A DNA stretch of 64,000 nucleotides from an uncultured virus (IMG/VR IMGVR_UViG_3300009060_000024) (taxonomy: Duplodnaviria; Heunggongvirae; Uroviricota; Caudoviricetes). The stretch lies in IMG/VR virus record IMGVR_UViG_3300009060_000024; one strand, given 5' to 3'. Numbering within the stretch: the first letter of the stretch is position 1; every line of letters begins with the position of its first letter. Under the pieces are notes generated by a model, which saw only the letters and a program-made list of their open reading frames with translations, was not told where the DNA came from and made no database searches. The position numbers and the translations under genes were made by a program. Shown one piece after another: positions 939 to 62,268 of the stretch.

Positions 939-2447
939 CTAGTGCGTCTCCAAGCTAACGTCGCCATTAATGAGTTTGTATCTGTACTCCCCCGCGTTCT
1001 TACTGTACTTCCAGTAACTCTGCCTGAAAGCCATGTTATGGCTAACACCAGTTCGGGTACTGCCGTCATGAGCTGCCATCTCGATGCATTTATCTAGTGC
1101 AACGCAAATGAACTCATCCTTTCGCATGTTGAGGGTTGACTTGTCGATGTATACAGTGTTGGTGTTGTCCTTCCACACCCTCTCGGTTTTACTGTATCCA
1201 GCGCTCACACTCCCATCGAACCCAATCTCCCGAAGGAACCATCGGGCACGTTCGAGGTTTTTAACACGTTTTTTGGTCAGTTCATTGGTGCTGAGTGGAC
1301 GCATCTCCCACTTCATCTCTTGGTCGATTACATCCTCCATGCTGTATATGGAAGAGCTGTCAATAAGGTTTTTGACAGCATCTTCAAAGCTAGAGTCTAT
1401 TACTATGACCCCAGCCTCGTCCATCGCCTTGTCAGACATTTTGTTTTGTTTCATCTGGAAGGAAATCTTTTCATCCTTCAACTGTTCGATGCTCCACTCA
1501 TCCCCGGTAACGTCGGGAATGATCTCCTTGGACCCGAACTTCTCAAGAGCCCTGTCGTCTCCCTTTATGCTATCCAGAGTCCAGTTAACCTCGCGGCGAG
1601 TGAGATCGTCTTTGTCAAACAGATGGTCAAGTGTTAGGCCATCGATCTCTTGCTTGATGGTCTTGTAAACTATGCACGTATCGAGTATGTCGTTGCGTGC
1701 AAAGTTGACATCTAGGTCTTTCTTACTGACAACATTGGTTCGAGTTGCAGTAAGCTTCTCATCAGTTACGTATGCTCCTAGGTTATAGATGCTGGTATGG
1801 AAACGCCATGCATCATTAACCCCAATGCTGTAGTATGCGTTTTCAGTCTCGTAGTTGTAATCGAACTCCTCGTACAGTTCTTCTCCGTTTAGAGTGAGTT
1901 CAATGTCATGGAGCCACGGGATGTACTTTACCAACTTCTTCACCTCATTAACTGTGTGTTGAAGGCCGTCAATGAGATTGTACAGTTCTACCTCGATTGA
2001 ACATCCGTCGAACTCATCGGATGTGTTTAGGACGTTGTAAGACAGTCCAGAACTGTCTAGTTCATGAGTGTCTCCATCAACATTCACCACGGTGTGGTTG
2101 TTGTCGAGATCGACAACGAGAATGTTGTTTTTCGTGTGCCAGATGTTCTTTCCAAAGTTGAAAATCTGGCCACGTCCCATTCGGAACTTCCCGAACTCTT
2201 TATCTTCAATGTCGGAGTCCTTAAGTCCGAACTTCTGGAAGTAGTTTTCTATGTCCTCCTCGGACATTCCCTTGCCGTCATCTTCAACGACGACAGCATC
2301 GGTCTTGATGGAAACATCAACCTTTGACGCTCCGGCGTCAACGGAGTTCATTACAGCTTCAAGAACTGCCTTTTCTACGGTTCCAGCCTGCTTACGCATT
2401 ACGTCGTTTAGCAGACCTTCTGTTGCCTCGAATTGTCGTTTTGGCAT
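939..2447 (-). CDS. GHKL (Hsp90/MORC-like) ATPase
   Basis: EAVMNSVDAGA (N box), EDDGKGM (G1), GKFRMG (G2). Confidence 0.85.
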   Translation of the reverse strand: MPKRQFEATEGLLNDVMRKQAGTVEKAVLEAVMNSVDAGASKVDVSIKTDAVVVEDDGKGMSEEDIENYFQKFGLKDSDIEDKEFGKFRMGRGQIFNFGKNIWHTKNNILVVDLDNNHTVVNVDGDTHELDSSGLSYNVLNTSDEFDGCSIEVELYNLIDGLQHTVNEVKKLVKYIPWLHDIELTLNGEELYEEFDYNYETENAYYSIGVNDAWRFHTSIYNLGAYVTDEKLTATRTNVVSKKDLDVNFARNDILDTCIVYKTIKQEIDGLTLDHLFDKDDLTRREVNWTLDSIKGDDRALEKFGSKEIIPDVTGDEWSIEQLKDEKISFQMKQNKMSDKAMDEAGVIVIDSSFEDAVKNLIDSSSIYSMEDVIDQEMKWEMRPLSTNELTKKRVKNLERARWFLREIGFDGSVSAGYSKTERVWKDNTNTVYIDKSTLNMRKDEFICVALDKCIEMAAHDGSTRTGVSHNMAFRQSYWKYSKNAGEYRYKLINGDVSLETH

Positions 2448-4355: not shown

Positions 4356-5415
4356 TTATCTGATCCTCCCGTCTGAGGGCGACATCCACCAGCAGCAGAC
4401 TGAGCAGAACGACGGGTCCCTCCCATGAACGCAACGCTTCTTCGTGTCGTTCCGGACAATGGTTCGTTTCACTTCGCTCACGAGTCTCCCTCCTGCGAGG
4501 CGTCCGCAGAGGCTGAGAGTCGCTCAAACCGGATTGAACGAAGCTTGCGATATATCCAACCTTGAGGAGTGTGCATCAATGTGTAATGCTTGAACCATTC
4601 CCACTGGCAAATGAGAGCGTGTTCGCTCACCATCGACCACCCACAGTGACACGTTATCCGAAATCCGATTTCTGCCGACCTTGGGAGTCCGAAAATCCAC
4701 TCTTCCCCTCCTTGTTCAGTATCATTCGTCATCAATACTCATCAAATTTTACCCTGTGTTCGTTTCCATCTCTATCCGTCCACACCAAAACGCCCCCGCT
4801 AAGATCACCGAGACGTAGAGGTCTTTGTTCAGTTCTACCCATCTACTTCACCTCAGATTGTTTAGTTTCCGCTTCTGCTTCACTCACCAATTTCCAATCA
4901 ATAGAGTACGATACCCGATTTTTCAACATTAGTTGCTTAAGGGCTACACGTCCCCTGCGCCCAAATTCCTTAACAACCCTATCCTGCTCAACGGGTTCGT
5001 TATCTATTATAAATTGTTCAACTTCGTCCATCGGTCCATCGCCTCCTTCACGCTCATTTGTCCATATGTCCATTGTGTCCTGTAAGAGTTTCATAATCGC
5101 CGCACATCCATGCAAGGATGCGTTCAGCCTCCTCCTCGTCTTCCCGACGAAGAGATTCGGCTATGTAATGCTCTATGCTTGGATATGGTCTCTGTGTCAT
5201 TCCTACAAGGTCTTCGTTTCGTTTCATGTGTAATATCTACTCTTATCTAACGTCGTTCATCATGAACGATCCTACCATAGACAAAAAACACATGGAACAC
5301 AACACTATAGCAGCATCAACTCCATAATTAAAATACGAATACAATCCAATGATTGTTATACCGAACAGTGCAAATGTAGGACCAAATGCGTTAGGGTTAA
5401 CTATCGGTTCTGGTG

Positions 5416-5787: not shown

Positions 5788-6623
5788 CAGTCTTCGTGAG
5801 GGACAGGTGTTATTCCCTCACTTGTATTATGATCTCTGCTAATGTGTATAAGAACACGTTTTAGAGCGTCGCTTCTGTCACACTCATCATCATACATAAA
5901 GTACACTCCGCATTTGTCACATTTGTATCCATCGACCTTAAACATCGTTGTCCAAAAGATCGACTGCTACACTTTTAGACATGGATTCAATGCCATCAGC
6001 TATGTCTTCATCTCCAGCAACACTAAGGAAAACCTTAGCAGCAGTCATGCATTTGAACGCTTCCATTCTAAGATCGTATATCTCCTGATCTCTCTTTGAT
6101 TCGGTTTCGTCTTTTTCCATGTTGTTTTTGGTATGTTTGTCGTATAGGCACGTGCAGGCGTCGTGTGCCGTTTTGTGTACACAGGTACAAAGACACTTGT
6201 ATATGTCTACGCGGCCTGTGTGGGCTTGTGTGTCGGTGTATCGGGGCTTCGGGACTGCCGACCCCGGTTAGATGTAATTCCTCACGTTGTAGCTTGGACC
6301 TGTGCCAGTCAAAGCAGTGCCCAGATCGATGCCACAACCCTCGCAATTGTCAGTCAGTTCATCTCCGTGAGCGGGTTCGTTGTCAAACCCGCAAAATCTA
6401 CACTTCATTGTCATTGTGTGGTTACACTCCCCATGAAGGGTGCCATTACGTAGTGCTGATCATGAGCGAAGTTAGAATGCTCTATTGCGTCTTCCATTGC
6501 CTCTTTGTCGAGGTCATAATCTTCGTACATGAACTTTTCTTGGCAGCCTGTGCAGATGAAGCCTTTGTATTTAGACATCTTTTCTAACAGTATAACGTGT
6601 GTTGCTTTGTCATTTGTTTCTCC

Positions 6624-6676
6624 GCCTTTTAGCGTTACCCAGCCAGCACCACGAGGAGGTAAGGCTCTTGCTGGCC
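6624..6676 (-). ncRNA. HDV-like self-cleaving ribozyme (minimal) A
   Basis: P1 GGCCAGC/GCUGGCU (G1-U), P2 GCCUU/AAGGC, P3 ACC/GGU, L3 UCCUCGU, P1.1 CC/GG, J4/2 CUAA. Confidence 0.92.
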
Positions 6677-6779
6677 ATAAACTATGTTCGTTATGTGTTA
6701 GTGAGGAGTTCTATAAGCATTATTATGAACCCTGCTAACATCATCACCAATACAATTTCGATTAATATGCAACACATCT

Positions 6780-7744: not shown

Positions 7745-8538
7745 TATTGATTGATGATCATGGAGAAAACATCTTTTGCCTTCTCCAATTCACCGATTTG
7801 TACAAGGCCTGAAATGTAATCGAACAGTTCGTCTTCACCAGATAGTACAAGTGTTAACTCGACATGTTCAGACTCTCTGTCTTGCTGCTGTTCGTCTTCG
7901 TCGTCATCGTCTTGTTTGTTTATGATTCCTTGGTCAACAGCTTTTTCTATGATCTCGTCTGTGTCTGGCGTTTTCTTGAACCAGTTTTTGAGTTCGTCTT
8001 CGACAAATCTGTCATCTGTCATCCAACCCTTGGCCGTGATTGTACTTGAAACAGTTGAGTGACTCTCATACCCCATGTTATCAGCTATTGCTCTGTATGA
8101 CATGTCTGGGTTGTTGTAATGCCACGCGAGAGTCTCCTGCCTGTCTTCAGATAAGTCGCTGAAGGTTGTGACAGGTGGCCGTCCCATAAGAGTATAATGA
8201 ATGTCTTCATCCTGAAGGATTCTGACAACCTTGTCCTTTGACTCTCCTGAAAGATCGCAGACCTTATCAATCTCCTTGTTGGAGATGTCGGGTCCAAGAC
8301 CGTCCACGTTGCCAGACTGTATACGCTTGAACGCCTTAACGATCCTCATGTAATTGGACATTTCAGGATCGGAAGGTATGACATCTGGGTACACTCGCAT
8401 GATAAGGTCGTCTGTTGACCTCCCCCTGTGAGCAGAGTCGTTCATGCTGTTTATGTGCTGTACAATGCGCTTTCGGACACTTTTAGTCCTTCCACAAGCG
8501 CGGCACTGGTACTGTAACTCAGTCTCGTCTACTGTCAT
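7744..8538 (-). CDS. Zn-finger/HTH transcription regulator
   Basis: CRAC...H...H and SYRAIADNMGYESHSTVS HTH. Confidence 0.7.
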   Translation of the reverse strand: MTVDETELQYQCRACGRTKSVRKRIVQHINSMNDSAHRGRSTDDLIMRVYPDVIPSDPEMSNYMRIVKAFKRIQSGNVDGLGPDISNKEIDKVCDLSGESKDKVVRILQDEDIHYTLMGRPPVTTFSDLSEDRQETLAWHYNNPDMSYRAIADNMGYESHSTVSSTITAKGWMTDDRFVEDELKNWFKKTPDTDEIIEKAVDQGIINKQDDDDEDEQQQDRESEHVELTLVLSGEDELFDYISGLVQIGELEKAKDVFSMIINQ

Positions 8539-10156: not shown

Positions 10157-10199
10157 AGCCATATAGGGAATTGGACCCTATGCTAACACCAGTATGGCT
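10157..10199 (-). ncRNA. mini-tRNA element t7
   Basis: AGCCAU-ACUGGUGUUAGC-AUAGGG UCCAAUU CCCUAU-AUGGCU. Confidence 0.75.
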
Positions 10200-10202
10200 A
10201 AG

Positions 10203-10276
10203 TGCGACAGGTGGGATTTGAACCCACAACCTCAGCCTTATAAGGACTGCACTCTACCTAGTTGAGTTACTGTCGC
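10203..10276 (-). tRNA. tRNA-Ile(TAT)
   Basis: GCGACAG/CTGTCGC-A; CAGTC-CT TAT AA-GGCTG; T-loop TTCAAAT. Confidence 0.9.
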
Positions 10277-11210: not shown

Positions 11211-11405
11211 TTATAGCTTGAGTTTGGTGATCGAAGCTTCGTCGTCGTCCTCTGCCATCGAAACAATGAGTTCGTACAGGCTCATTGGAAGGTCCGCCTC
11301 TCGGTAGTAGTTACCGCTTTCTGTAACTTCCCCGTGTCCTTCTTTCTCGACACGTTTTTCAGCCTCTTCCTTGTCCGTCTCGAACTCAATTCCTATGGTT
11401 GTCAT
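11211..11405 (-). CDS. hypothetical protein
   Basis: 64-aa acidic ORF directly downstream of ribozyme B. Confidence 0.7.
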   Translation of the reverse strand: MTTIGIEFETDKEEAEKRVEKEGHGEVTESGNYYREADLPMSLYELIVSMAEDDDEASITKLKL

Positions 11406-11416
11406 TCGTGCAGTTG

Positions 11417-11471
11417 ACCTCGTTCAGTGTTAACCGAGGGAAGCTCTGGGAGCTAAGAGGTTACAACCCTC
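11417..11471 (-). ncRNA. HDV-like ribozyme B (variant)
   Basis: P1 GAGGG/CCCUC, P2 ACCUC/GAGGU, P3 AGC/GCU, L3 UCCCAGA, GG, UUAACA, CUGAAC. Confidence 0.7.
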
Positions 11472-11518
11472 GTGTACGTATAATTGTCGCCTGCGCGCAC
11501 AAACGGCGCGCTACCCCT

Positions 11519-11531
11519 TAAATATAACGGC
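11519..11531 (-). promoter_or_regulatory. viral promoter-like motif GCCGTTATATTTA
   Basis: Identical 13-mer also at ~295-307 (-); similar GTCGTTATATTTAAA at ~59545-59559 (-); TATA-like. Confidence 0.55.
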
Positions 11532-11774
11532 ACTGATCGAACAGTTACACGCTGCCTTGTCGTATGTCCTCCTGGGTTAAAACCTCTCCCCCGACTCTCA
11601 CAGCATTGACATCCATGTTTTGTATGGCCGTTTTTTCTGGTCCGTTGTCCATGCTGCTGATCATTTGTTCGTATGCAACTCTTGAATTTGGCCCGTTGCC
11701 AAATCCTATCATGAGGTCCATTCCCTCATCTTCTCCATCGTTTTCGACTGTGTAAAACAGGTACTTAGACATGT

Positions 11775-12062
11775 CTACCCATCCTGATCCTCAGGAATTA
11801 CAGATGCCCACTCGCTGATTTGGAACTCCACCTCTCTCTTTCCACGGGGTGTGAGTGTGTACTCGTTAGACCTTGCATCCTTCTCGGACTTGTCAACGAG
11901 TGACATTTTGACGAGTTCGTCGAGGTTAGGATATAGCCTCCCGTTATTAATCTTGCTCTCGTAGTAATGCTCCAGTTCATCAGCAATCTCCAGTCCGTTA
12001 GGACTGTTTAGCTTTGCGATTGTTCTGATGCAGTCTCGTTGGAATCCGGTTAAGTCGTGCAT
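11775..12062 (-). CDS. PadR-family wHTH regulator (haloarchaeal type)
   Basis: MHDLTGFQRD...GRLYPNLDELV...NEYTLTPRG. Confidence 0.9.
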   Translation of the reverse strand: MHDLTGFQRDCIRTIAKLNSPNGLEIADELEHYYESKINNGRLYPNLDELVKMSLVDKSEKDARSNEYTLTPRGKREVEFQISEWASVIPEDQDG

Positions 12063-12322
12063 TAGAGGTAGTGTTCTTTTGCAGCAGCGTATCCCTTTGC
12101 GAATTGGGGAACGTACTCAAGTGAGCCATCTTCCGTGTAGTTGGCATCTTGAGCTTGCTCTACCACGGTTTCACTGTTCACATCGTACACGCTAAAAACG
12201 TGAAACACGACGTGATCTCGATACTTGAACTCGTGTTCATACACCTCCACATCGGGATTAAAAACGTCCCAGAGTGACGTGTGTACGTTGAGCATTGGTT
12301 GCTCAAATGGTGCGTCGTTCAT
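12062..12322 (-). CDS. hypothetical protein
   Basis: Start MNDAP just downstream of ribozyme C. Confidence 0.7.
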   Translation of the reverse strand: MNDAPFEQPMLNVHTSLWDVFNPDVEVYEHEFKYRDHVVFHVFSVYDVNSETVVEQAQDANYTEDGSLEYVPQFAKGYAAAKEHYL

Positions 12323-12330
12323 TGTGTGCA

Positions 12331-12386
12331 ACTGCATCTTAGTGTTAACCAGAGCCTACCACGAGGAGGTGTGCAGTGCAGGCTCC
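12331..12386 (-). ncRNA. HDV-like ribozyme C
   Basis: P1 GGAGCCU/AGGCUCU, P2 ACUGCA/UGCAGU, P3 ACC/GGU, L3 UCCUCGU, GG, UUAACA, CUAAGA. Confidence 0.9.
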
Positions 12387-12403
12387 GTAAAGAAAGAGTG
12401 TGT

Positions 12404-12661
12404 TTAATCGAACAGGTTGGAACTTTCACACAGTTTAGTGATAGAAACGTTTGACTCCTGCCTTTCATCGCATTTGGTACACCGCCTGAGTATACACTCA
12501 CCGTGATCACGTCTTACAGTACTGTAACTCCATTCGTGCCCGTGTGACGAGCATGGGGGGTGTACTACGACTTCATCTCGTAGACTGTTTTTAAGAGTGA
12601 CATCCTCTCCGCTTTGTAGTTTTTCAAGCTGTTCCTCCGAAATGGTGTATTTGTGTTTCAT
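12404..12661 (-). CDS. hypothetical Zn-binding protein
   Basis: C...GHEW...CTKC. Confidence 0.6.
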   Translation of the reverse strand: MKHKYTISEEQLEKLQSGEDVTLKNSLRDEVVVHPPCSSHGHEWSYSTVRRDHGECILRRCTKCDERQESNVSITKLCESSNLFD

Positions 12662-12677
12662 TGTTTGTTGTGGGTAT

Positions 12678-12947
12678 TCAGCAACTGAACATCGTTCTTC
12701 CCTCTGCGTCGTGGACGAACATAATGTCAGACTCGCATGCCCACTCGAAGTAACCGGGGATGTCACCTCCGATGATGGAGAACACTCTTTCCCCATGATC
12801 GTTGTCGTGATGGTACACTATCTGAGTAACCTCCTCATATGTATACCATTCTGCTTCAGCTCCCCAGTTGTTATCGAGATGTCTGATTCCTACTCGCATG
12901 TACGAATCGTTCCACGGAATGCTGTCAGGCAGTTGGTTTGCTCTCAT
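12678..12947 (-). CDS. hypothetical protein
   Basis: Start MRANQ just downstream of ribozyme D. Confidence 0.65.
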   Translation of the reverse strand: MRANQLPDSIPWNDSYMRVGIRHLDNNWGAEAEWYTYEEVTQIVYHHDNDHGERVFSIIGGDIPGYFEWACESDIMFVHDAEGRTMFSC

Positions 12948-12958
12948 GTGTGCAGTTC

Positions 12959-13010
12959 CCACGTTCAGCGAATCACTCCCAGCTCTTGAAGCTAAGTGGT
13001 ACTAAGGAGC
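12959..13010 (-). ncRNA. HDV-like ribozyme D (variant)
   Basis: P1 GCUCCU/GGGAGU (G1-U), P2 CCAC/GUGG, P3 AGC/GCU, L3 UUCAAGA with compensatory P1.1 UC/GA, UUCG, CUGAAC. Confidence 0.75.
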
Positions 13011-13030
13011 GTGTGATCGTATCGTGTGCG

Positions 13031-13564
13031 TTACATCAGTCCAGAGTCAACCAGTTCTTTAGTAGTGTGATCGTCGCAGACTCTCCTGTGATTTATCTTC
13101 ACCCAGTCTCCAGTTATTATATGGAGGTCTTCTCCACACACTGGGCAGTTTCTGTACATCGATGGCTGGTCATTTCTCCCATGCTGGTTTGCAGCTTTGT
13201 CTATCGCTCGGAGAGCGTTCCTTGGAGATTCGTTAAGTAGAGTGAACAGATCCATGTCAAGCTCTGCCTTGACAAGCCACTTTGTGTAAGCGACATCTTG
13301 ATCTGTCATCCAGTAGCGTTCGAGATTCTCCGTCTGGTACTTTTTCTTCCATCTGGAGTTCTTTTTCTTTTTCTCATAGACGACTGCAACATCGTCTTGA
13401 GCGTCGACCCCGAACACTAACTCTCCATTCTTCTCGTAAACAGATAATCTGGGTATTCGTTCTTCGGTCTTTGGGTAGGCACTCGAACTGCTTGAGGTTT
13501 TGCCACCATTCTTGACCTGCCGTTGAATATCCTCAGATTGATCTGCGAGATCTTTAATGTTCAT
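13031..13564 (-). CDS. hypothetical protein with C-terminal Zn finger
   Basis: CPVC...CDDH. Confidence 0.75.
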   Translation of the reverse strand: MNIKDLADQSEDIQRQVKNGGKTSSSSSAYPKTEERIPRLSVYEKNGELVFGVDAQDDVAVVYEKKKKNSRWKKKYQTENLERYWMTDQDVAYTKWLVKAELDMDLFTLLNESPRNALRAIDKAANQHGRNDQPSMYRNCPVCGEDLHIITGDWVKINHRRVCDDHTTKELVDSGLM

Positions 13565-13576
13565 CGTGCATCGGTT

Positions 13577-13635
13577 TGTGTCCTACGTTTGGTTGATCCA
13601 GCACCAGCTCGGGGAGCTAAGTAGGCACAGGCACC
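13577..13635 (-). ncRNA. HDV-like ribozyme E (variant)
   Basis: P1 GGUGCC/GGUGCU, P2 CCUAC/GUAGG, P3 AGC/GCU, L3 UCCCCGA, GG, CCAAAC. Confidence 0.7.
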
Positions 13636-13781
13636 GTATAATAATGGCACTAAACCCTACTGGTTTTCTGTAGGGATTAGTACCAGTCGGTATCGTATCG
13701 AATACCCACTACTTCTTCAGTCTCGTCATCGAGTTCCCAGACTGCTCTGTCAGTGGGGTGCGATCCGGTTTGGCTCATCGT

Positions 13782-14318
13782 TTACTCGTCGTCCTGTTCC
13801 TCGTCGTCGCTGTAGGCGTCCTCAGCGGCGTCGGACATCGAGCTGTCGTCGTCCTCGTCGTTGCCAGCCTGCTCTGCACGAGCCTGCTTAATGGCGTCGT
13901 TGAGGTCGGACAGCTCGAACTCGGACGCGACGACGTACTGCGCCACGTCCTGCTCGTCGAACCCGAGGAAATCCATGAGCGGAACTGCGCCCTTGGGCTC
14001 CTCGCCGTCCGGTAGCTCGGGAAGGTTGCCGATCACACCTCCGATGTAGTGCGCGAGGTAGATCTGGAAACGGGTGTACCACTCCTCGTGGTTGCCGCTC
14101 GGTGCGAGCTTCTTGAGGCTGGTACGGACAGTACCGTTTTCCTTCGTGACCTCCCACGCGAGGCTGTCGAACCACTCCCAGCCAGAGACATCCTTGTACT
14201 TGTCGTCCCCGTCGGTCGAGTAGACGTTAGCCACGAGGCTCTTGGCCTGTGAGATGTCACTGCCCTGCTGGTCGTTGTTCTGCTCTTCGCCGCCGAGTAG
14301 GTCTTTGACTCCAGACAT
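13782..14318 (-). CDS. very acidic protein with host-like high-GC codons (probably highly expressed, early)
   Basis: Almost exclusively G/C-ending codons, unlike neighbours; first gene after the structured leader. Confidence 0.85.
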   Translation of the reverse strand: MSGVKDLLGGEEQNNDQQGSDISQAKSLVANVYSTDGDDKYKDVSGWEWFDSLAWEVTKENGTVRTSLKKLAPSGNHEEWYTRFQIYLAHYIGGVIGNLPELPDGEEPKGAVPLMDFLGFDEQDVAQYVVASEFELSDLNDAIKQARAEQAGNDEDDDSSMSDAAEDAYSDDEEQDDE

Positions 14319-14324
14319 TGTGCT

Positions 14325-14855
14325 GTCTTGCCGGTTACTTATGGCAGGGGCTCTGACCATTATCCCCTAACGCCTGTTTCCGACTCAAGGCGCTGCTACA
14401 GATGGGTATAAATTCGTCTGTACCGTAACCGGATGCACATTCTTCCCAGCGCAAGCTAATTCGCAGATTTCTTTTCGCTGTATTGGCTCCTTGGATTAAG
14501 CTTCCCTAATTGCACAGCCGCTCCGCTGGAAAAATTCTCGGCGTCATAGCAACTGCTGGGGCATCCCTTTTCATAGGGCGCGCTCCTTCAAGCGTTTAGC
14601 TAATACTGCTCCCACGCAACGCTGGTCGCAGATTCACTTGAACCCTCTGGTTCGCAAGCGCTGGGGCTTACCCGATCCCATCTCTTGGTTATAGCTACCG
14701 CTATGCCGAGATCCCCCTGTCGGACTACAGGGCATTCTACTCGGCGGATGGTCATGTGTCCGCTGTCCAGACCAGTAGGTCGCGGCAGTGTCGCCACTGC
14801 TACTGGTGTATGGCTTACTTCTGTCCGCGCGCGACTGGTTTTCGCTCGCGCGCAG
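14325..14855 (-). ncRNA. large GC-rich structured RNA or leader of unknown class
   Basis: No credible ORF; more than 12 hand-identified helices, including long-range CCGGUUAC/GUAACCGG and GGAUGC-CCCAGC/GCUGGG...GCAUCC. Confidence 0.7.
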
Positions 14856-60823: not shown

Positions 60824-60896
60824 TAGTCCCGTAGAGATTCGAACTCTAGTCCTCGGCTCCAAAGGCCGATGTGATTGGCCGCTACACCACGGGACT
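60824..60896 (-). tRNA. tRNA-Gln(TTG)
   Basis: AGTCCCG/CGGGACT-A; TCGGC-CT TTG GA-GCCGA. Confidence 0.95.
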
Positions 60897-60900
60897 CAGA

Positions 60901-60989
60901 CGGCAGGACTGGGATTTGAACCCAGAGTGGAGTCATTACCTCCGGCTGGTTCTCAAGACCAGTGCATTGCCAGATTCTGCCATCCTGCC
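60901..60989 (-). tRNA. tRNA-Ser(TGA)
   Basis: Long variable arm; CTGGT-CT TGA GA-ACCAG; G73. Confidence 0.95.
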
Positions 60990-61055
60990 ACATATTATTT
61001 TAACTCTTTGTTAGCATCTCTATATACACGACCACACTAATAAATTTTGTGCGTG

Positions 61056-61328
61056 TTATGCGTCATTGTGTTGGTCTACCATTGGTATGCTCCTTTCTTC
61101 ATCCTTTGGTATTGGGTTTCCGTCTTGGTCGAGCATTATTGTGTCATCTGGGACGTTAGTGCGTTTATACACTGTACGTCTCCCGCATTCAAAGCACTTC
61201 ATGACAGGAACGTCATCGTACTTTTTGTTTATCCATATTACCCGCATACAATCATTATGCATGCAGTAGTATGGGATCTCTTCTTGTTGCGTCTTTACAG
61301 ATCTGCTGTATGTATCGTTATGTCTCAT
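61056..61328 (-). CDS. Zn-ribbon protein
   Basis: CMHNDC, CFEC. Confidence 0.65.
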   Translation of the reverse strand: MRHNDTYSRSVKTQQEEIPYYCMHNDCMRVIWINKKYDDVPVMKCFECGRRTVYKRTNVPDDTIMLDQDGNPIPKDEERSIPMVDQHNDA

Positions 61329-61476
61329 TCGTACCCCCAATTATCATCTTCTGGCTCTTCCTCCGACCATCCACATTGCACACATATTTGTTTGTCCAAT
61401 AATGCACTTCGGTTAAAATGGCCGCAATTAGGACACGTCCAGCGGTTGTATGTTTCAACCATTTAATCACCTCCAA

Positions 61477-61549
61477 AGCTACCAGAGGGATTTGAACCCC
61501 CGACAACATCCTTACAAGGGACGCGCTCTACCAACTGAGCCATGGTAGC
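61477..61549 (-). tRNA. tRNA-Thr(TGT)
   Basis: CGTCC-CT TGT AA-GGATG; U73. Confidence 0.95.
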
Positions 61550-61554
61550 ACTCA

Positions 61555-61627
61555 CGGACATGACGAGACTCGAACTCGCGATCTAGAGGTTAGGAACCTC
61601 TCGCCTTGTCCACTAGGCCACATGTCC
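61555..61627 (-). tRNA. tRNA-Arg(CCT)
   Basis: AGAGG-TT CCT AA-CCTCT. Confidence 0.95.
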
Positions 61628-61763
61628 AAATGGCTGCTTAGGGCAGCCAATCCGACTACGGGTGCGTATTGTGACGATCATATCTCAACCCTCACTGACC
61701 AGGCAAGGGTGCATCTGTTCCTTGCTCTCCCCTCTATTTAATATTGCGCCGAGGAGGCGCAAG

Positions 61764-61837
61764 CGCCTGCCCGAGGAATCGAACCTCGAACCTTCTGGGT
61801 AACAGCCAGATGCTCTACCAGGTTGAGCTAGGCAGGC
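61764..61837 (-). tRNA. tRNA-Asn(GTT)
   Basis: TCTGG-CT GTT AC-CCAGA; G73. Confidence 0.95.
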
Positions 61838-62079
61838 TTATAGGGGATTTTATGCCTCCCCCACAGAGCATCGGCACTCCAACACGCCACCATTACACAA
61901 TTTGTGAATCCTGATGTTAAGTTCAGGCTTCACCATCCCACGTGTCAATTGTCCCGACGAATCAACCTATCGAATGAGGTCTACGTTGTTGTGTACTCTA
62001 TCTTCCGTGATATGATACGAGTTATGGTAGCAGGTAAGCTCTCGCTCGCGTGTCAATGTGGCATGTTTTACATGCCGAG

Positions 62080-62152
62080 TGGACCACCTCGGATTTGAAC
62101 CGAGATCTGCACGTCCCAAACGTGCAATGATACCAAGGTACACCAGTGGTCC
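62080..62152 (-). tRNA. tRNA-Pro(TGG)
   Basis: GCACG-TT TGG GA-CGTGC. Confidence 0.93.
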
Positions 62153-62155
62153 AAA

Positions 62156-62268
62156 TGGGAGTGGGAGGGATCGAACCCCCGTCACAGATGTCATGATTGA
62201 GTTAGCGACATATGGCAATTTTGTTTGATGCTCACCATTACTGTGACATTCCATTAAATTACACTCCC
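62156..62268 (-). ncRNA. atypical tRNA-like RNA (~113 nt)
   Basis: Acceptor GGGAGTG/CACTCCC-A and T arm GGGGG-TTCGATC-CCTCC, but the anticodon arm is replaced by a branched insert. Confidence 0.7.

Follow-up and report, generated by a model that had tools for sequence, protein, structure and literature searches.

Three short stretches of DNA from an uncultured virus (IMG/VR IMGVR_UViG_3300009060_000024) raise the question of whether a motif that departs from the HDV ribozyme core can represent a self-cleaving RNA, and what such an element would do between the genes of an operon. The window, that is, the whole stretch of DNA analysed here, is 64,000 nucleotides long. Minimal HDV-like ribozymes number in the thousands in gut phages, mostly at the 3' ends of tRNAs. 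A sequence-only reading of the window had described three copies of a variant HDV-like motif followed by a shared translation-start context. Here, we describe a computational analysis of these elements. Judging from sequence conservation, we consider it likely that all three function at the RNA level as members of a distinct subfamily of minimal (P4-less) HDV-like self-cleaving ribozymes, located in the spacers of a minus-strand operon.

Results

Layout of the variant elements

The minus strand of the window carries three variant elements (11417-11471, 12959-13010 and 13582-13635; Table 1) that share a P4-less, HDV-like double-pseudoknot layout and lie in the short gaps between the small acidic ORFs of a minus-strand operon. 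Strand and positions agree with those given by the sequence-only reading, except that the third element is better bounded at 13582-13635, the originally proposed end at 13577 lying 5 nt beyond P2'. In the variant copies the 5' part runs P1 (6 nt), J1/2 (4-5 nt), P2 (4-5 bp), UU, AGC and a 7-nt L3, and the 3' part consists of GCU, P1' (6 nt), GG or GA, a loop of 4-6 nt, C(U/C)(G/A)AAC and P2'. L3 reads UCCCAGA in 11417-11471, UUCAAGA in 12959-13010 and UCCCCGA in 13582-13635; the proposed AGC/GCU P3 and an L3 ending in GA are thus present in all three. The exact core TTAGCTNNNNGAGCT occurs three times in the window (0 mismatches) and nowhere outside the three variant sites. The copy with a UC/GA P1.1, called copy D earlier, is 12959-13010 if the five ribozymes of the window are lettered by coordinate. 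A hairpin just upstream of 13582-13635 has arms that duplicate both P2 strands of that ribozyme, and it is 100% conserved in the syntenic contig L022.

Table 1. Coordinates of the predicted ribozymes and associated features in the window
Feature	Coordinates	Strand	Details
Canonical-core minimal HDV-like ribozyme (predicted)	6623..6676	-	Fifth window copy; descriptor match
Variant minimal HDV-like ribozyme (predicted)	11417..11471	-	G1 11471, predicted catalytic C 11427; descriptor match; model R1 70.7 bits
Canonical-core minimal HDV-like ribozyme (predicted)	12331..12386	-	"Ribozyme C" of the sequence-only reading; P3 ACC/GGU, L3 UCCUCGU; same operon; descriptor match
Variant minimal HDV-like ribozyme, UC/GA P1.1 (predicted)	12959..13010	-	G1 13010, predicted catalytic C 12968; descriptor match; model R1 66.7 bits
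Variant minimal HDV-like ribozyme (predicted)	13582..13635	-	G1 13635, predicted catalytic C 13592; descriptor match; model R1 53.7 bits
Hairpin	13655..13675	-	Between small upstream ORF and ribozyme 13582-13635
ORF, 64 aa	11211..11405	-	Start 11 nt past ribozyme 11417-11471; 81% identical to L022 ortholog
ORF, 89 aa	12678..12947	-	Start 11 nt past ribozyme 12959-13010
ORF, 177 aa	13031..13564	-	Start 17 nt past ribozyme 13582-13635; stop 20 nt ahead of G1 13010
UGCAC motif	11408..11412	-	2 nt ahead of ATG 11403-11405
UGCAC motif	12950..12954	-	2 nt ahead of ATG 12945-12947
UGCAC motif	13566..13570	-	1 nt ahead of ATG 13562-13564

Two features that had been taken as peculiar to the subfamily proved less distinctive. 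P1 is indeed short, with 6-nt strands in which 11417-11471 forms 5 bp plus a U-U mismatch adjoining P3 and 13582-13635 includes three G-U wobbles, but a 6-bp P1 is common among theta ribozymes (PMC10879173) and is no subfamily marker. Likewise, a UU is present in each copy, but an equally good reading of the proposed UU linker and 6-nt J4/2 is a P2 of 6-7 nt that abuts P3 and includes a single conserved mismatch (U-C or U-U) next to the U-A pair that closes it. An ordinary CNRA J4/2 then remains (CUGA, CCAA, CCGA or CAGA), each form of which is present in the published theta list (PMC10879173).

A covarying double pseudoknot with an invariant core

Thirteen copies, three from the window and ten from metagenome contigs, were aligned. 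Standard pairs occupy 99.0% of the 194 pair cells, compared with 77.6% in shuffles, figures that lean toward structure because three of the 13 copies came from a scan that required pairing and pattern matches that did not pair were set aside as chance; the split is nonetheless bimodal. When the 3' partners were slid by 1-3 columns as a control, only 30-46% of cells were paired. Both sides change in 10 of the 15 pairs (P1, 5/6; P2, 4/4; P1.1, 1/2), counted as sequences rather than as events. The covariation in P1, P2 and P1.1 supports the nested double pseudoknot that had been proposed, in which P1 crosses P2 and encloses P3, and L3 pairs through P1.1 with the strand that follows P1'. The compensatory change of P1.1 from CC/GG to UC/GA was also confirmed, one of its two pairs being maintained by a C-G to U-A change; the four UC/GA copies share a UUCG or UACG loop and so may descend from one change. 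P3 is constant across the 13 copies, as are the UU and the AA, and covariation lends no support to P3 or to the proposed U-A closing pair; because P3 is invariant, it is uninformative as evidence of membership.

The positions of the predicted catalytic core are fixed. G1, L3 U1 and G6, the first C of J4/2 and two J4/2 A's are invariant in 13/13 copies, and the first position of J4/2 is that of the predicted catalytic cytosine. We take L3 U1 and G6 to be the equivalents of U20 and G25. HDV itself has a G at +1 that forms a G-U wobble at the base of P1; G1 likewise stands at the P1 base here, with U as its partner in six copies and C in seven. The 7-nt L3 keeps U1 and G6 and departs from the canonical form at positions 5 and 7. 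Both these L3 changes (A or C at 5, A at 7) and the flip of the P3 pair involve the active-site region of the predicted ribozyme.

In the nested minimum-energy fold of all three copies, P3 grows to 5 bp around a 3-nt loop and would thereby take up an L3 partner of P1.1, and 11417-11471 has a rival two-hairpin fold at -17.3 kcal/mol. Nested minimum-energy z-scores for the five elements ranged from -1.31 to +0.47 and were not significant, a result that is expected for pseudoknots and was therefore set aside as evidence.

Specificity of the motif

A unified minimal-HDV descriptor, which superseded a looser version with about 6 spurious matches, gave five matches in the window: the three variant copies and the canonical-core copies at 12331-12386 and 6623-6676. 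Every one of them lies between ORFs and on the minus strand. Sixty dinucleotide shuffles of the window yielded a mean of 0.017 matches (maximum 1), and no match remained in the window when the catalytic C of the descriptor was replaced by A, G or T. In metagenome loci, the descriptor with its catalytic position changed gave five matches; all were register-shifted readings of true copies.

The Rfam HDV-type models reported none of the three variant copies, either at gathering threshold or at E<=10, yet they reported both canonical-core neighbours below gathering: 12331-12386 with RF02682 (HDV-F-prausnitzii; 30.5 bits, gathering score 44) and 6623-6676 with RF00094 (HDV_ribozyme; 40.6 bits, gathering score 50). 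Both families belong to the same fold class as the window elements, and the absence of the variant copies agrees with the suggestion that standard descriptors may miss the subfamily. Conversely, the variant model R1 scored the two canonical-core copies low, at 21.4 and 8.7 bits. R1 recovered one copy from outside its training set (L029 4553-4605, 45.8 bits), which has its own P1 and P2 pairs. P1 and P2 were both paired in 12/27 metagenome pattern matches and in 0/95 pattern matches from 185,579 species genomes. A pattern scan of IMG/VR gave 21 matches; on inspection none had P1/P2 complementarity, and those loci held 0 descriptor matches.

Comparison with theta ribozymes

The closest known class is that of the theta ribozymes, minimal HDV-like ribozymes of Caudoviricetes (Kienbeck et al. 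2024, PMC10879173), with which we compared the elements through the fields of the published list of 7,704 sequences. Like theta ribozymes, as that list presents them, the elements lack P4, are about 52-57 nt long and have a P1 of 6-7 bp starting with G, a 3-bp P3, a 7-nt L3 starting with U, a 2-bp P1.1 that includes UC/GA with a UUCG-type loop, and a C-N-R-A J4/2; many theta copies also lie between phage genes in sense orientation. UC/GA P1.1 with a UUCG-type loop and a 6-bp P1 are both already common in the list, and neither marks the subfamily; the list also includes a G-C pair at G1 (PMC10879173). If P2 is taken as 6-7 nt with one mismatch, the three variant copies also fit the theta L4 (4-8 nt), J4/2 (C-N-R-A plus an optional nucleotide) and P2 abutting P3.

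The differences are concentrated in P3, L3 and P2. The variant P3 is AGC/GCU, with a flipped middle pair, whereas theta P3 is RCY/RGY; the listed theta P3 5' strands are ACC (4479), GCC (2933), ACT (183) and GCT (about 105), and among 36 of the 74 occurrences of AGC in the list it was never a P3 5' strand (PMC10879173). The variant L3 ends N-N-G-A, with A or C at position 5, in contrast to N-C-G-Y, and the variant P2, where theta ribozymes have about 7 bp, consists of 4-5 bp together with a conserved mismatch (U-C or U-U) and one U-A pair (PMC10879173). The variant copies are found away from tRNA 3' ends, whereas the tRNA-associated theta subset cleaves within 5 nt of one, and on metagenome contigs with acidic proteins rather than in gut phages (PMC10879173). 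The sequences thus place the P3 and L3 of these elements outside the published theta-ribozyme fields, which argues for a real and distinct subfamily, albeit one less exotic than first described.

Gene context and relatives

Over 20 copies the usual order is stop codon, about 20 nt, ribozyme, 8-18 nt and ATG. G1 lies 17-35 nt past the stop codon in 13 of the 19 copies for which an upstream ORF is visible, and the element ends 8-18 nt ahead of the ATG in 19/20 copies, taking the real start of the ORF at 13031-13564. Position -1 is a pyrimidine in 20/20 copies and position -2 an A in 19/20. Element 12331-12386 ends 8 nt ahead of the ATG, and its G1 follows the preceding stop codon by 17 nt; this 17-nt gap and the 20-nt gap at 12959-13010 leave no room for a separate promoter. 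Between 11000 and 14600, a sigma-70 promoter scan gave 2 sites versus 3.0 in shuffles, and an intrinsic-terminator scan gave 7 terminator-like sites versus 3.6 in shuffles, none of them at the ribozymes. Each variant copy is over 1.1 kb away from the nearest tRNA (10202-10276). No Pfam or PHROG family was found for the 177-aa ORF.

The proposed translation-start context, UGCAC followed by AUG within 1-3 nt, is present at all three variant sites and ahead of the ATG at 12320-12322 that follows ribozyme 12331-12386, but it is confined to the window and the syntenic contig L022/L023. It is absent at 6623-6676 and in L025, L029, L038/L039, L041 and L046, and TGCAC-N0-4-ATG is not enriched across the whole window (18 matches versus 14.8 expected). 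What the family as a whole shares is not UGCAC but the spacing of 8-18 nt to the ATG.

Proteins of L022/L023 are 50-81% identical to those of the window, and all five ribozymes are kept there with changes that preserve pairing. P2 carries a compensatory change in the L022 ortholog of 11417-11471, two P1 wobbles of 13582-13635 become Watson-Crick pairs in L022, and the L023 ortholog of 6623-6676 has a compensatory change in P1. Near-identity DNA searches with the window in phage and plasmid records were negative, as was tblastn against phages with the 177-aa and clamp-loader-like proteins; nor did the 177-aa protein have a relative in an IMG/VR protein scan. The label of halovirus is not supported. 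The integrase and Mrp-like proteins gave only distant, uninformative matches among plasmids. The ORF at 7747-8538 matched 0/401 sampled genomes, each of about 1 Mb, which has no bearing on the host. The source is an uncultured mobile element or virus, probably with a salt-adapted, possibly archaeal, host.

Discussion

The order of stop codon, ribozyme and ATG over 20 copies points to the cutting of a multi-gene message, probably into pieces that are each headed by a folded element. Each element would cut its own transcript directly 5' of G1, after the conserved A-pyrimidine, leaving the upstream cistron with a 2',3'-cyclic phosphate end, while the downstream cistron would begin with a 5'-OH and the compactly folded ribozyme. 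Transcripts that span several genes or bear a leader would in this way be divided into separate messages able to differ in stability and translation. We infer this cutting from conservation only; a search for RNA sequencing runs containing this DNA found none. A partial precedent comes from the retrotransposons R2 and L1Tc, whose RNAs carry HDV-like ribozymes at their 5' ends; these ribozymes cut the RNA from a longer co-transcript, and their fold is proposed to promote cap-independent translation start (review, PMC6765202). There, as here, a ribozyme stands at the 5' end of a coding RNA, but R2 and L1Tc are eukaryotic retroelements with larger ribozymes, whereas several copies share one operon of a prokaryote-type element in the window (PMC6765202).

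The HDV-like fold may have been retained and its cutting lost, leaving a structured 5' leader that protects the message or recruits ribosomes, with the altered P3/L3 core as the inactivating change. In the fields inspected, none of the 7,704 theta sequences in the list has this core (PMC10879173), competing nested folds exist, and a fixed distance of 8-18 nt to the ATG would suit a role in translation. Loss of activity is nevertheless difficult to reconcile with a catalytic C, G1, L3 U and G and J4/2 A's that are invariant in 13/13 copies, with a P1.1 kept through a C-G to U-A change, and with an A-pyrimidine conserved before G1 that has no obvious role absent cutting; canonical-core copies, moreover, hold equivalent places in the same operon. 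We regard loss of cutting as decidedly unlikely. A related proposal, that cutting serves the spread or copy-out of a mobile gene cassette made of ribozyme and short leader rather than operon expression, draws on the four cassettes within 2.3 kb that share a ribozyme and an AAC-UGCAC-N1-3-ATG leader, and on the freeing of retroelements from co-transcripts by HDV-like ribozymes (PMC6765202). It is highly improbable: no reverse transcriptase or transposase adjoins the copies, which occupy syntenic sites in the window and in L022/L023, so that there is no sign of recent cassette movement.

Two further explanations dispense with the ribozyme fold. The core could be a simple AGCUC/GAGCU hairpin acting as a terminator or protein-binding stem, and this 5-bp stem does appear in the nested minimum-energy fold of all three copies. 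We find this very hard to sustain, as it leaves unexplained the covariation of P1 and P2, which span and cross the hairpin, the change in P1.1 and the invariant J4/2, while the pairs of the hairpin itself never covary. CTTAGCTnnnnGAGCT might instead act at the DNA level, as an operator or promoter-proximal site bound by a regulator such as the PadR-like protein encoded within the operon at 11775-12062; the core is partly palindromic and upstream of genes, and A/T-rich stretches precede G1. However, the strand-specific compensatory changes outside the palindrome are a signature of RNA, all five window copies are on the coding strand, and two copies follow the upstream stop codon by only 17-20 nt. 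An operator has almost no claim on our belief.

Returning to self-cleaving ribozymes as the preferred reading, the findings can be joined in a broader proposal, which we put forward as speculation and think unlikely. In salt-adapted, possibly archaeal mobile elements, HDV-fold ribozymes would be modular makers of 5' ends: after self-release, a fold 8-18 nt before the AUG would replace a cap or leader, protecting the 5'-OH and starting translation. The AGC/GCU subtype would in addition be switchable, between P1.1 and the 5-bp P3 and, in one copy, between P1/P2 and two hairpins, and could thereby set the amount of each cistron that is freed.

The core variant, with its flipped P3 pair, altered L3 and mismatched P2, escapes current Rfam models and published descriptor fields, and surveys may therefore undercount the class. 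Canonical, intermediate and variant cores occur together on the same contigs as a natural series, one well suited to asking which L3/P3 identities the HDV active site tolerates. A grammar in which a ribozyme stands about 20 nt after a stop codon and about 11 nt before a start codon is repeated four times in 2.3 kb and kept in relatives; its regularity and conservation make operon cutting and 5'-end definition directly testable. HDV-type 5' ends are reported to be captured by tailing-based libraries and only poorly by ligation-based libraries. Our literature search, over the portions of text that it returned, found no report of HDV-like ribozymes in archaeal viruses or archaeal elements, nor from hypersaline settings. 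If the modular 5'-end-maker proposal were true, the ribozyme-punctuated operon would represent a strategy of gene expression, and these elements would possibly be the first HDV-like ribozymes tied to archaeal elements.

An intergenic element with the strand order of a minimal HDV-like ribozyme

Three elements on the minus strand of the window, in a part where minus-strand genes surround them, are built of the same segments in the same order (Table). Each opens with a 6-nt P1 strand that begins with G, followed by an unpaired J1/2 of 4-5 nt, a P2 strand of 4-5 nt, UU, and a P3 formed by AGC and GCU around a 7-nt loop (L3) that starts with U and ends in GA. P1', complementary to the first strand, is followed by GG or GA, a loop of 4-6 nt, the junction C-N-R-A-A-C, and P2', complementary to the second strand. 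As judged from sequence, the strands are connected as in a P4-less HDV-like ribozyme. The sequence-only reading had described this common order, with its AGC/GCU P3 and GA-ending L3, and had placed the copies correctly; only the third was re-bounded, to 13582-13635. Within the 64 kb, the exact core TTAGCTNNNNGAGCT has three occurrences, all at these sites.

Features of the window discussed in the text
Feature	Coordinates	Strand	Remarks
Variant element	11417-11471	-	P1 5' strand is similar to P2', and P1' to P2 5' strand; same in L022 ortholog
Variant element	12959-13010	-	
Variant element	13582-13635	-	
Canonical-core copy	12331-12386	-	
Canonical-core copy	6623-6676	-	
Sub-threshold HDV-type match (E<=10)	12330-12386		RF02682, 30.5 bits; gathering score 44
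Sub-threshold HDV-type match (E<=10)	6606-6678		RF00094, 40.6 bits; gathering score 50
A/T-rich box and palindrome	11476-11534	-	TTATATTTAAGGGG; GCGCGC...GCGCGC; 25-60 nt upstream of G1; kept in L022
Hairpin	13655-13675	-	Between small upstream ORF and element 13582-13635; arms are the same sequences as both P2 strands of that element; 100% conserved in L022
Unlisted 33-codon ORF	13677-13778	-	Right after stop of ORF 13782-14360; conserved in L022; counting it, stop codon is 41 nt before G1 of 13582-13635
Short reading frame	6585-6622	-	ATG 9 nt past 6623-6676 opens 9 codons; L023 ortholog opens 80
tRNA-like gene	62156-62268	-	Rfam tRNA, 30.4 bits; 63-nt insertion in anticodon-arm region; no ARAGORN call
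Weak tRNA-like (mascRNA-type) match	10157-10199	-	19.2 bits, E 3.7; directly after tRNA-Ile 10202-10276
tRNA cluster	60824-62152		Six of nine ARAGORN tRNA genes (1-64000)

Recovery by a structural descriptor and by covariance models

We modelled a single descriptor on the field layout of the published list of theta ribozymes, the minimal HDV-like ribozymes of Caudoviricetes (Kienbeck et al. 2024, PMC10879173). It specified a P1 of 6-7 nt with G as first nucleotide, a J1/2 of 0-6 nt, a P2 of 6-7 nt adjoining P3 with at most one mismatch, a 3-bp P3, an L3 of the form U-NN-NN-G-N with an NN complementary to the 2 nt following P1', an L4 of 3-8 nt, and a J4/2 of C-N-R-A plus an optional nucleotide. 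Exactly five window sites matched, namely the three variant elements and the two canonical-core copies, all on the minus strand and all between ORFs; dinucleotide shuffles of the window (n=60) gave a mean of 0.017 matches. When the catalytic C was replaced by A, G or T, the descriptor had zero matches in the window, one unrelated match in 458 kb of genome loci, and five in the metagenome loci, all of them true copies read in a shifted register.

An Rfam scan of the window at gathering thresholds returned tRNAs only. At E<=10 both canonical-core copies were matched below threshold and the three variant elements went unreported; the window thus holds two canonical-core minimal HDV-like candidates and three elements unseen by curated models, in line with the earlier suggestion that standard descriptors may miss this class. 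Conversely, R1, a covariance model of the variant subfamily, scored the canonical copies at just 21.4 and 8.7 bits, so the separation holds both ways.

Close relatives of the window were absent from the phage, plasmid and IMG/VR collections. Scanning metagenome contigs with a sequence-only pattern gave 27 matches across 25 loci, which split cleanly in two by pairing: 12 had at most one mismatch in P1 and a perfect 4-bp P2, and the other 15 had 1-4 mismatches in P2 and, in 13 cases, at least two in P1. A similar pattern run on 185,579 prokaryote species, one genome each, produced 95 matches, none with both helices. A structure-aware scan of the true metagenome loci added three copies. R1, as built from our alignment, added a fourth from outside the training set (4553-4605 of contig locus L029, 45.8 bits), which has its own complementary P1 and P2. 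Of the L029 copies at 1951-2006 (-) and 4553-4605 (-), one has an intermediate core (P3 ACU/AGU, L3 UCCUAGU); the other, a variant copy, carries an additional U in the 5' strand of P3. Synteny with the window is seen in one contig, L022/L023, which encodes proteins 50-81% identical and carries all five ribozymes at the same positions.

Covariation and the alternatives to an active ribozyme

Thirteen distinct variant copies were aligned with the full pseudoknotted structure supplied. Standard pairs occupied 99.0% of 194 pair cells, a count that tallies sequences rather than events and includes three copies for which pairing was a search requirement, pattern matches without pairing having been left out as chance; the figure was 77.6% with partners shuffled and 30-46% with partners shifted by 1-3 columns. 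Both sides had changed in 10 of 15 pairs (P1 5/6, P2 4/4, P1.1 1/2). P3 is invariant and therefore neither supported nor contradicted. The compensatory P1.1 change from CC/GG to UC/GA was upheld, with C-G in nine copies, U-A in four and zero mismatches, although the four UC/GA copies share a UUCG or UACG loop and so may be a single lineage. Between the window and L022/L023, an A-U pair in P2 of 11417-11471 is replaced by U-A, two P1 wobbles of 13582-13635 by Watson-Crick pairs, and a C-G pair in P1 of 6623-6676 by U-A; this comparison alone is independent sequence support for the pairing.

Such strand-specific compensatory changes in mutually crossing segments cannot be explained by a plain hairpin or a DNA operator. 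The elements could be folded but inactive leaders, because the altered L3 and P3 are close to the active site and rival nested folds are predicted; this is less probable, given that the catalytic C is invariant and the context of the predicted cleavage site is conserved. At 11417-11471, the resemblance between P1 and P2 strands allows a two-hairpin fold (MFE -17.3 kcal/mol) that rivals the ribozyme fold.

Comparison with theta ribozymes

The subfamily was compared with the theta ribozymes described and listed in PMC10879173. In the rows considered, these have a P1 of 6 or 7 bp in which G1, the first nucleotide after the cleavage site, pairs with U or C; a P1.1 of CC/GG, UC/GA (typically then UUUCGA) or GC/GC; and J4/2 sequences such as CUAA, CUGA, CCAA, CCGA and CAGA. 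Three proposed marks of the subfamily from the earlier reading are therefore not distinguishing: its short P1, the UC/GA form of P1.1 and part of the J4/2 sequence. In contrast, the AGC/GCU P3 is unlike the listed P3 5' strands (ACC 4479, GCC 2933, ACT 183, GCT about 105), AGC serving as P3 5' strand in 0 of 36 viewed among its 74 occurrences in that list. In L3, position 5 is A or C and position 7 is A, whereas L3 of the listed theta sequences ends in C-G-Y. Relative to these sources, the short and mismatched P2 also remains particular to the subfamily.

The letters of the supposed UU linker and 6-nt J4/2 are present, but they can equally be read as a mismatched P2 abutting P3, in which the 6-7 nt immediately 5' of P3 pair with 6-7 nt past a 4-nt C-N-R-A junction, a closing U-A pair adjoins P3, and the conserved mismatch sets U against C in 10 copies and against another U in three. 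Since the two readings share their letters, and neither UU nor AA varies, covariation favors neither.

Placement at gene starts and proposed cleavage

In all 20 copies considered (5 in the window, 15 in the loci), the element occupies the gap between two same-strand ORFs. Of the 19 copies whose upstream ORF is in view, 13 have its stop codon 17-35 nt before G1, and the next ATG follows the element by 8-18 nt in 19 of 20, taking the real start of ORF 13031-13564, 17 nt downstream of its element. For 12959-13010 and 12331-12386 this distance is only 20 and 17 nt, so that these two must be co-transcribed with the upstream gene. Position -1 to G1 is a pyrimidine in 20/20 copies and position -2 is A in 19/20.

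Our inference is that these elements divide a multi-gene transcript at set positions: self-cleavage would occur at each element, and each downstream message would start with a 5'-OH and a compact fold. At 11417-11471 the cut would instead take off a leader, because of the conserved A/T-rich box and GC palindrome upstream, which are a candidate promoter plus operator or hairpin. R2 and L1Tc elements offer an analogy, in that the review PMC6765202 proposes for them an HDV-like fold that aids translation start; we speculate that the compact fold might also help translation start here. The hairpin at 13655-13675 could rival P2, imitate it or terminate the upstream message, and the gene downstream of 6623-6676 may be disrupted in the window.

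The shared start context noted earlier holds in part. At four copies in the window and in their L022 orthologs, one of which has UGCGCAC, UGCAC lies 1-3 nt 5' of the ATG, but it is not present at 6623-6676 or in more distant relatives, and is thus a feature of the lineage, not of the class.

The element and its host

The window (41-51% GC) may belong to a large virus, a plasmid or an island. Its ORFs are mostly family-less, and include two UbiA-family prenyltransferases, a subtilase, glycosyltransferases and an integrase. Moderately acidic proteins (median pI 4.98; 42/83 below 5), PHROG matches in 6 of 43 larger ORFs, an archaeal XerA equivalog as best integrase model (84 bits, far under the cutoff of 220), the insertion in the tRNA-like gene, which may be intron-bearing, and the word BRINE in the name of one related contig are no more than hints that the element is salt-adapted and possibly archaeal.

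In the portion of the open-access literature covered, HDV-like ribozymes were not found reported from archaeal or hypersaline elements. The fold class and its minimal form are already known; the interest of these elements lies in an altered core that escapes current models and in their very regular placement at gene starts.
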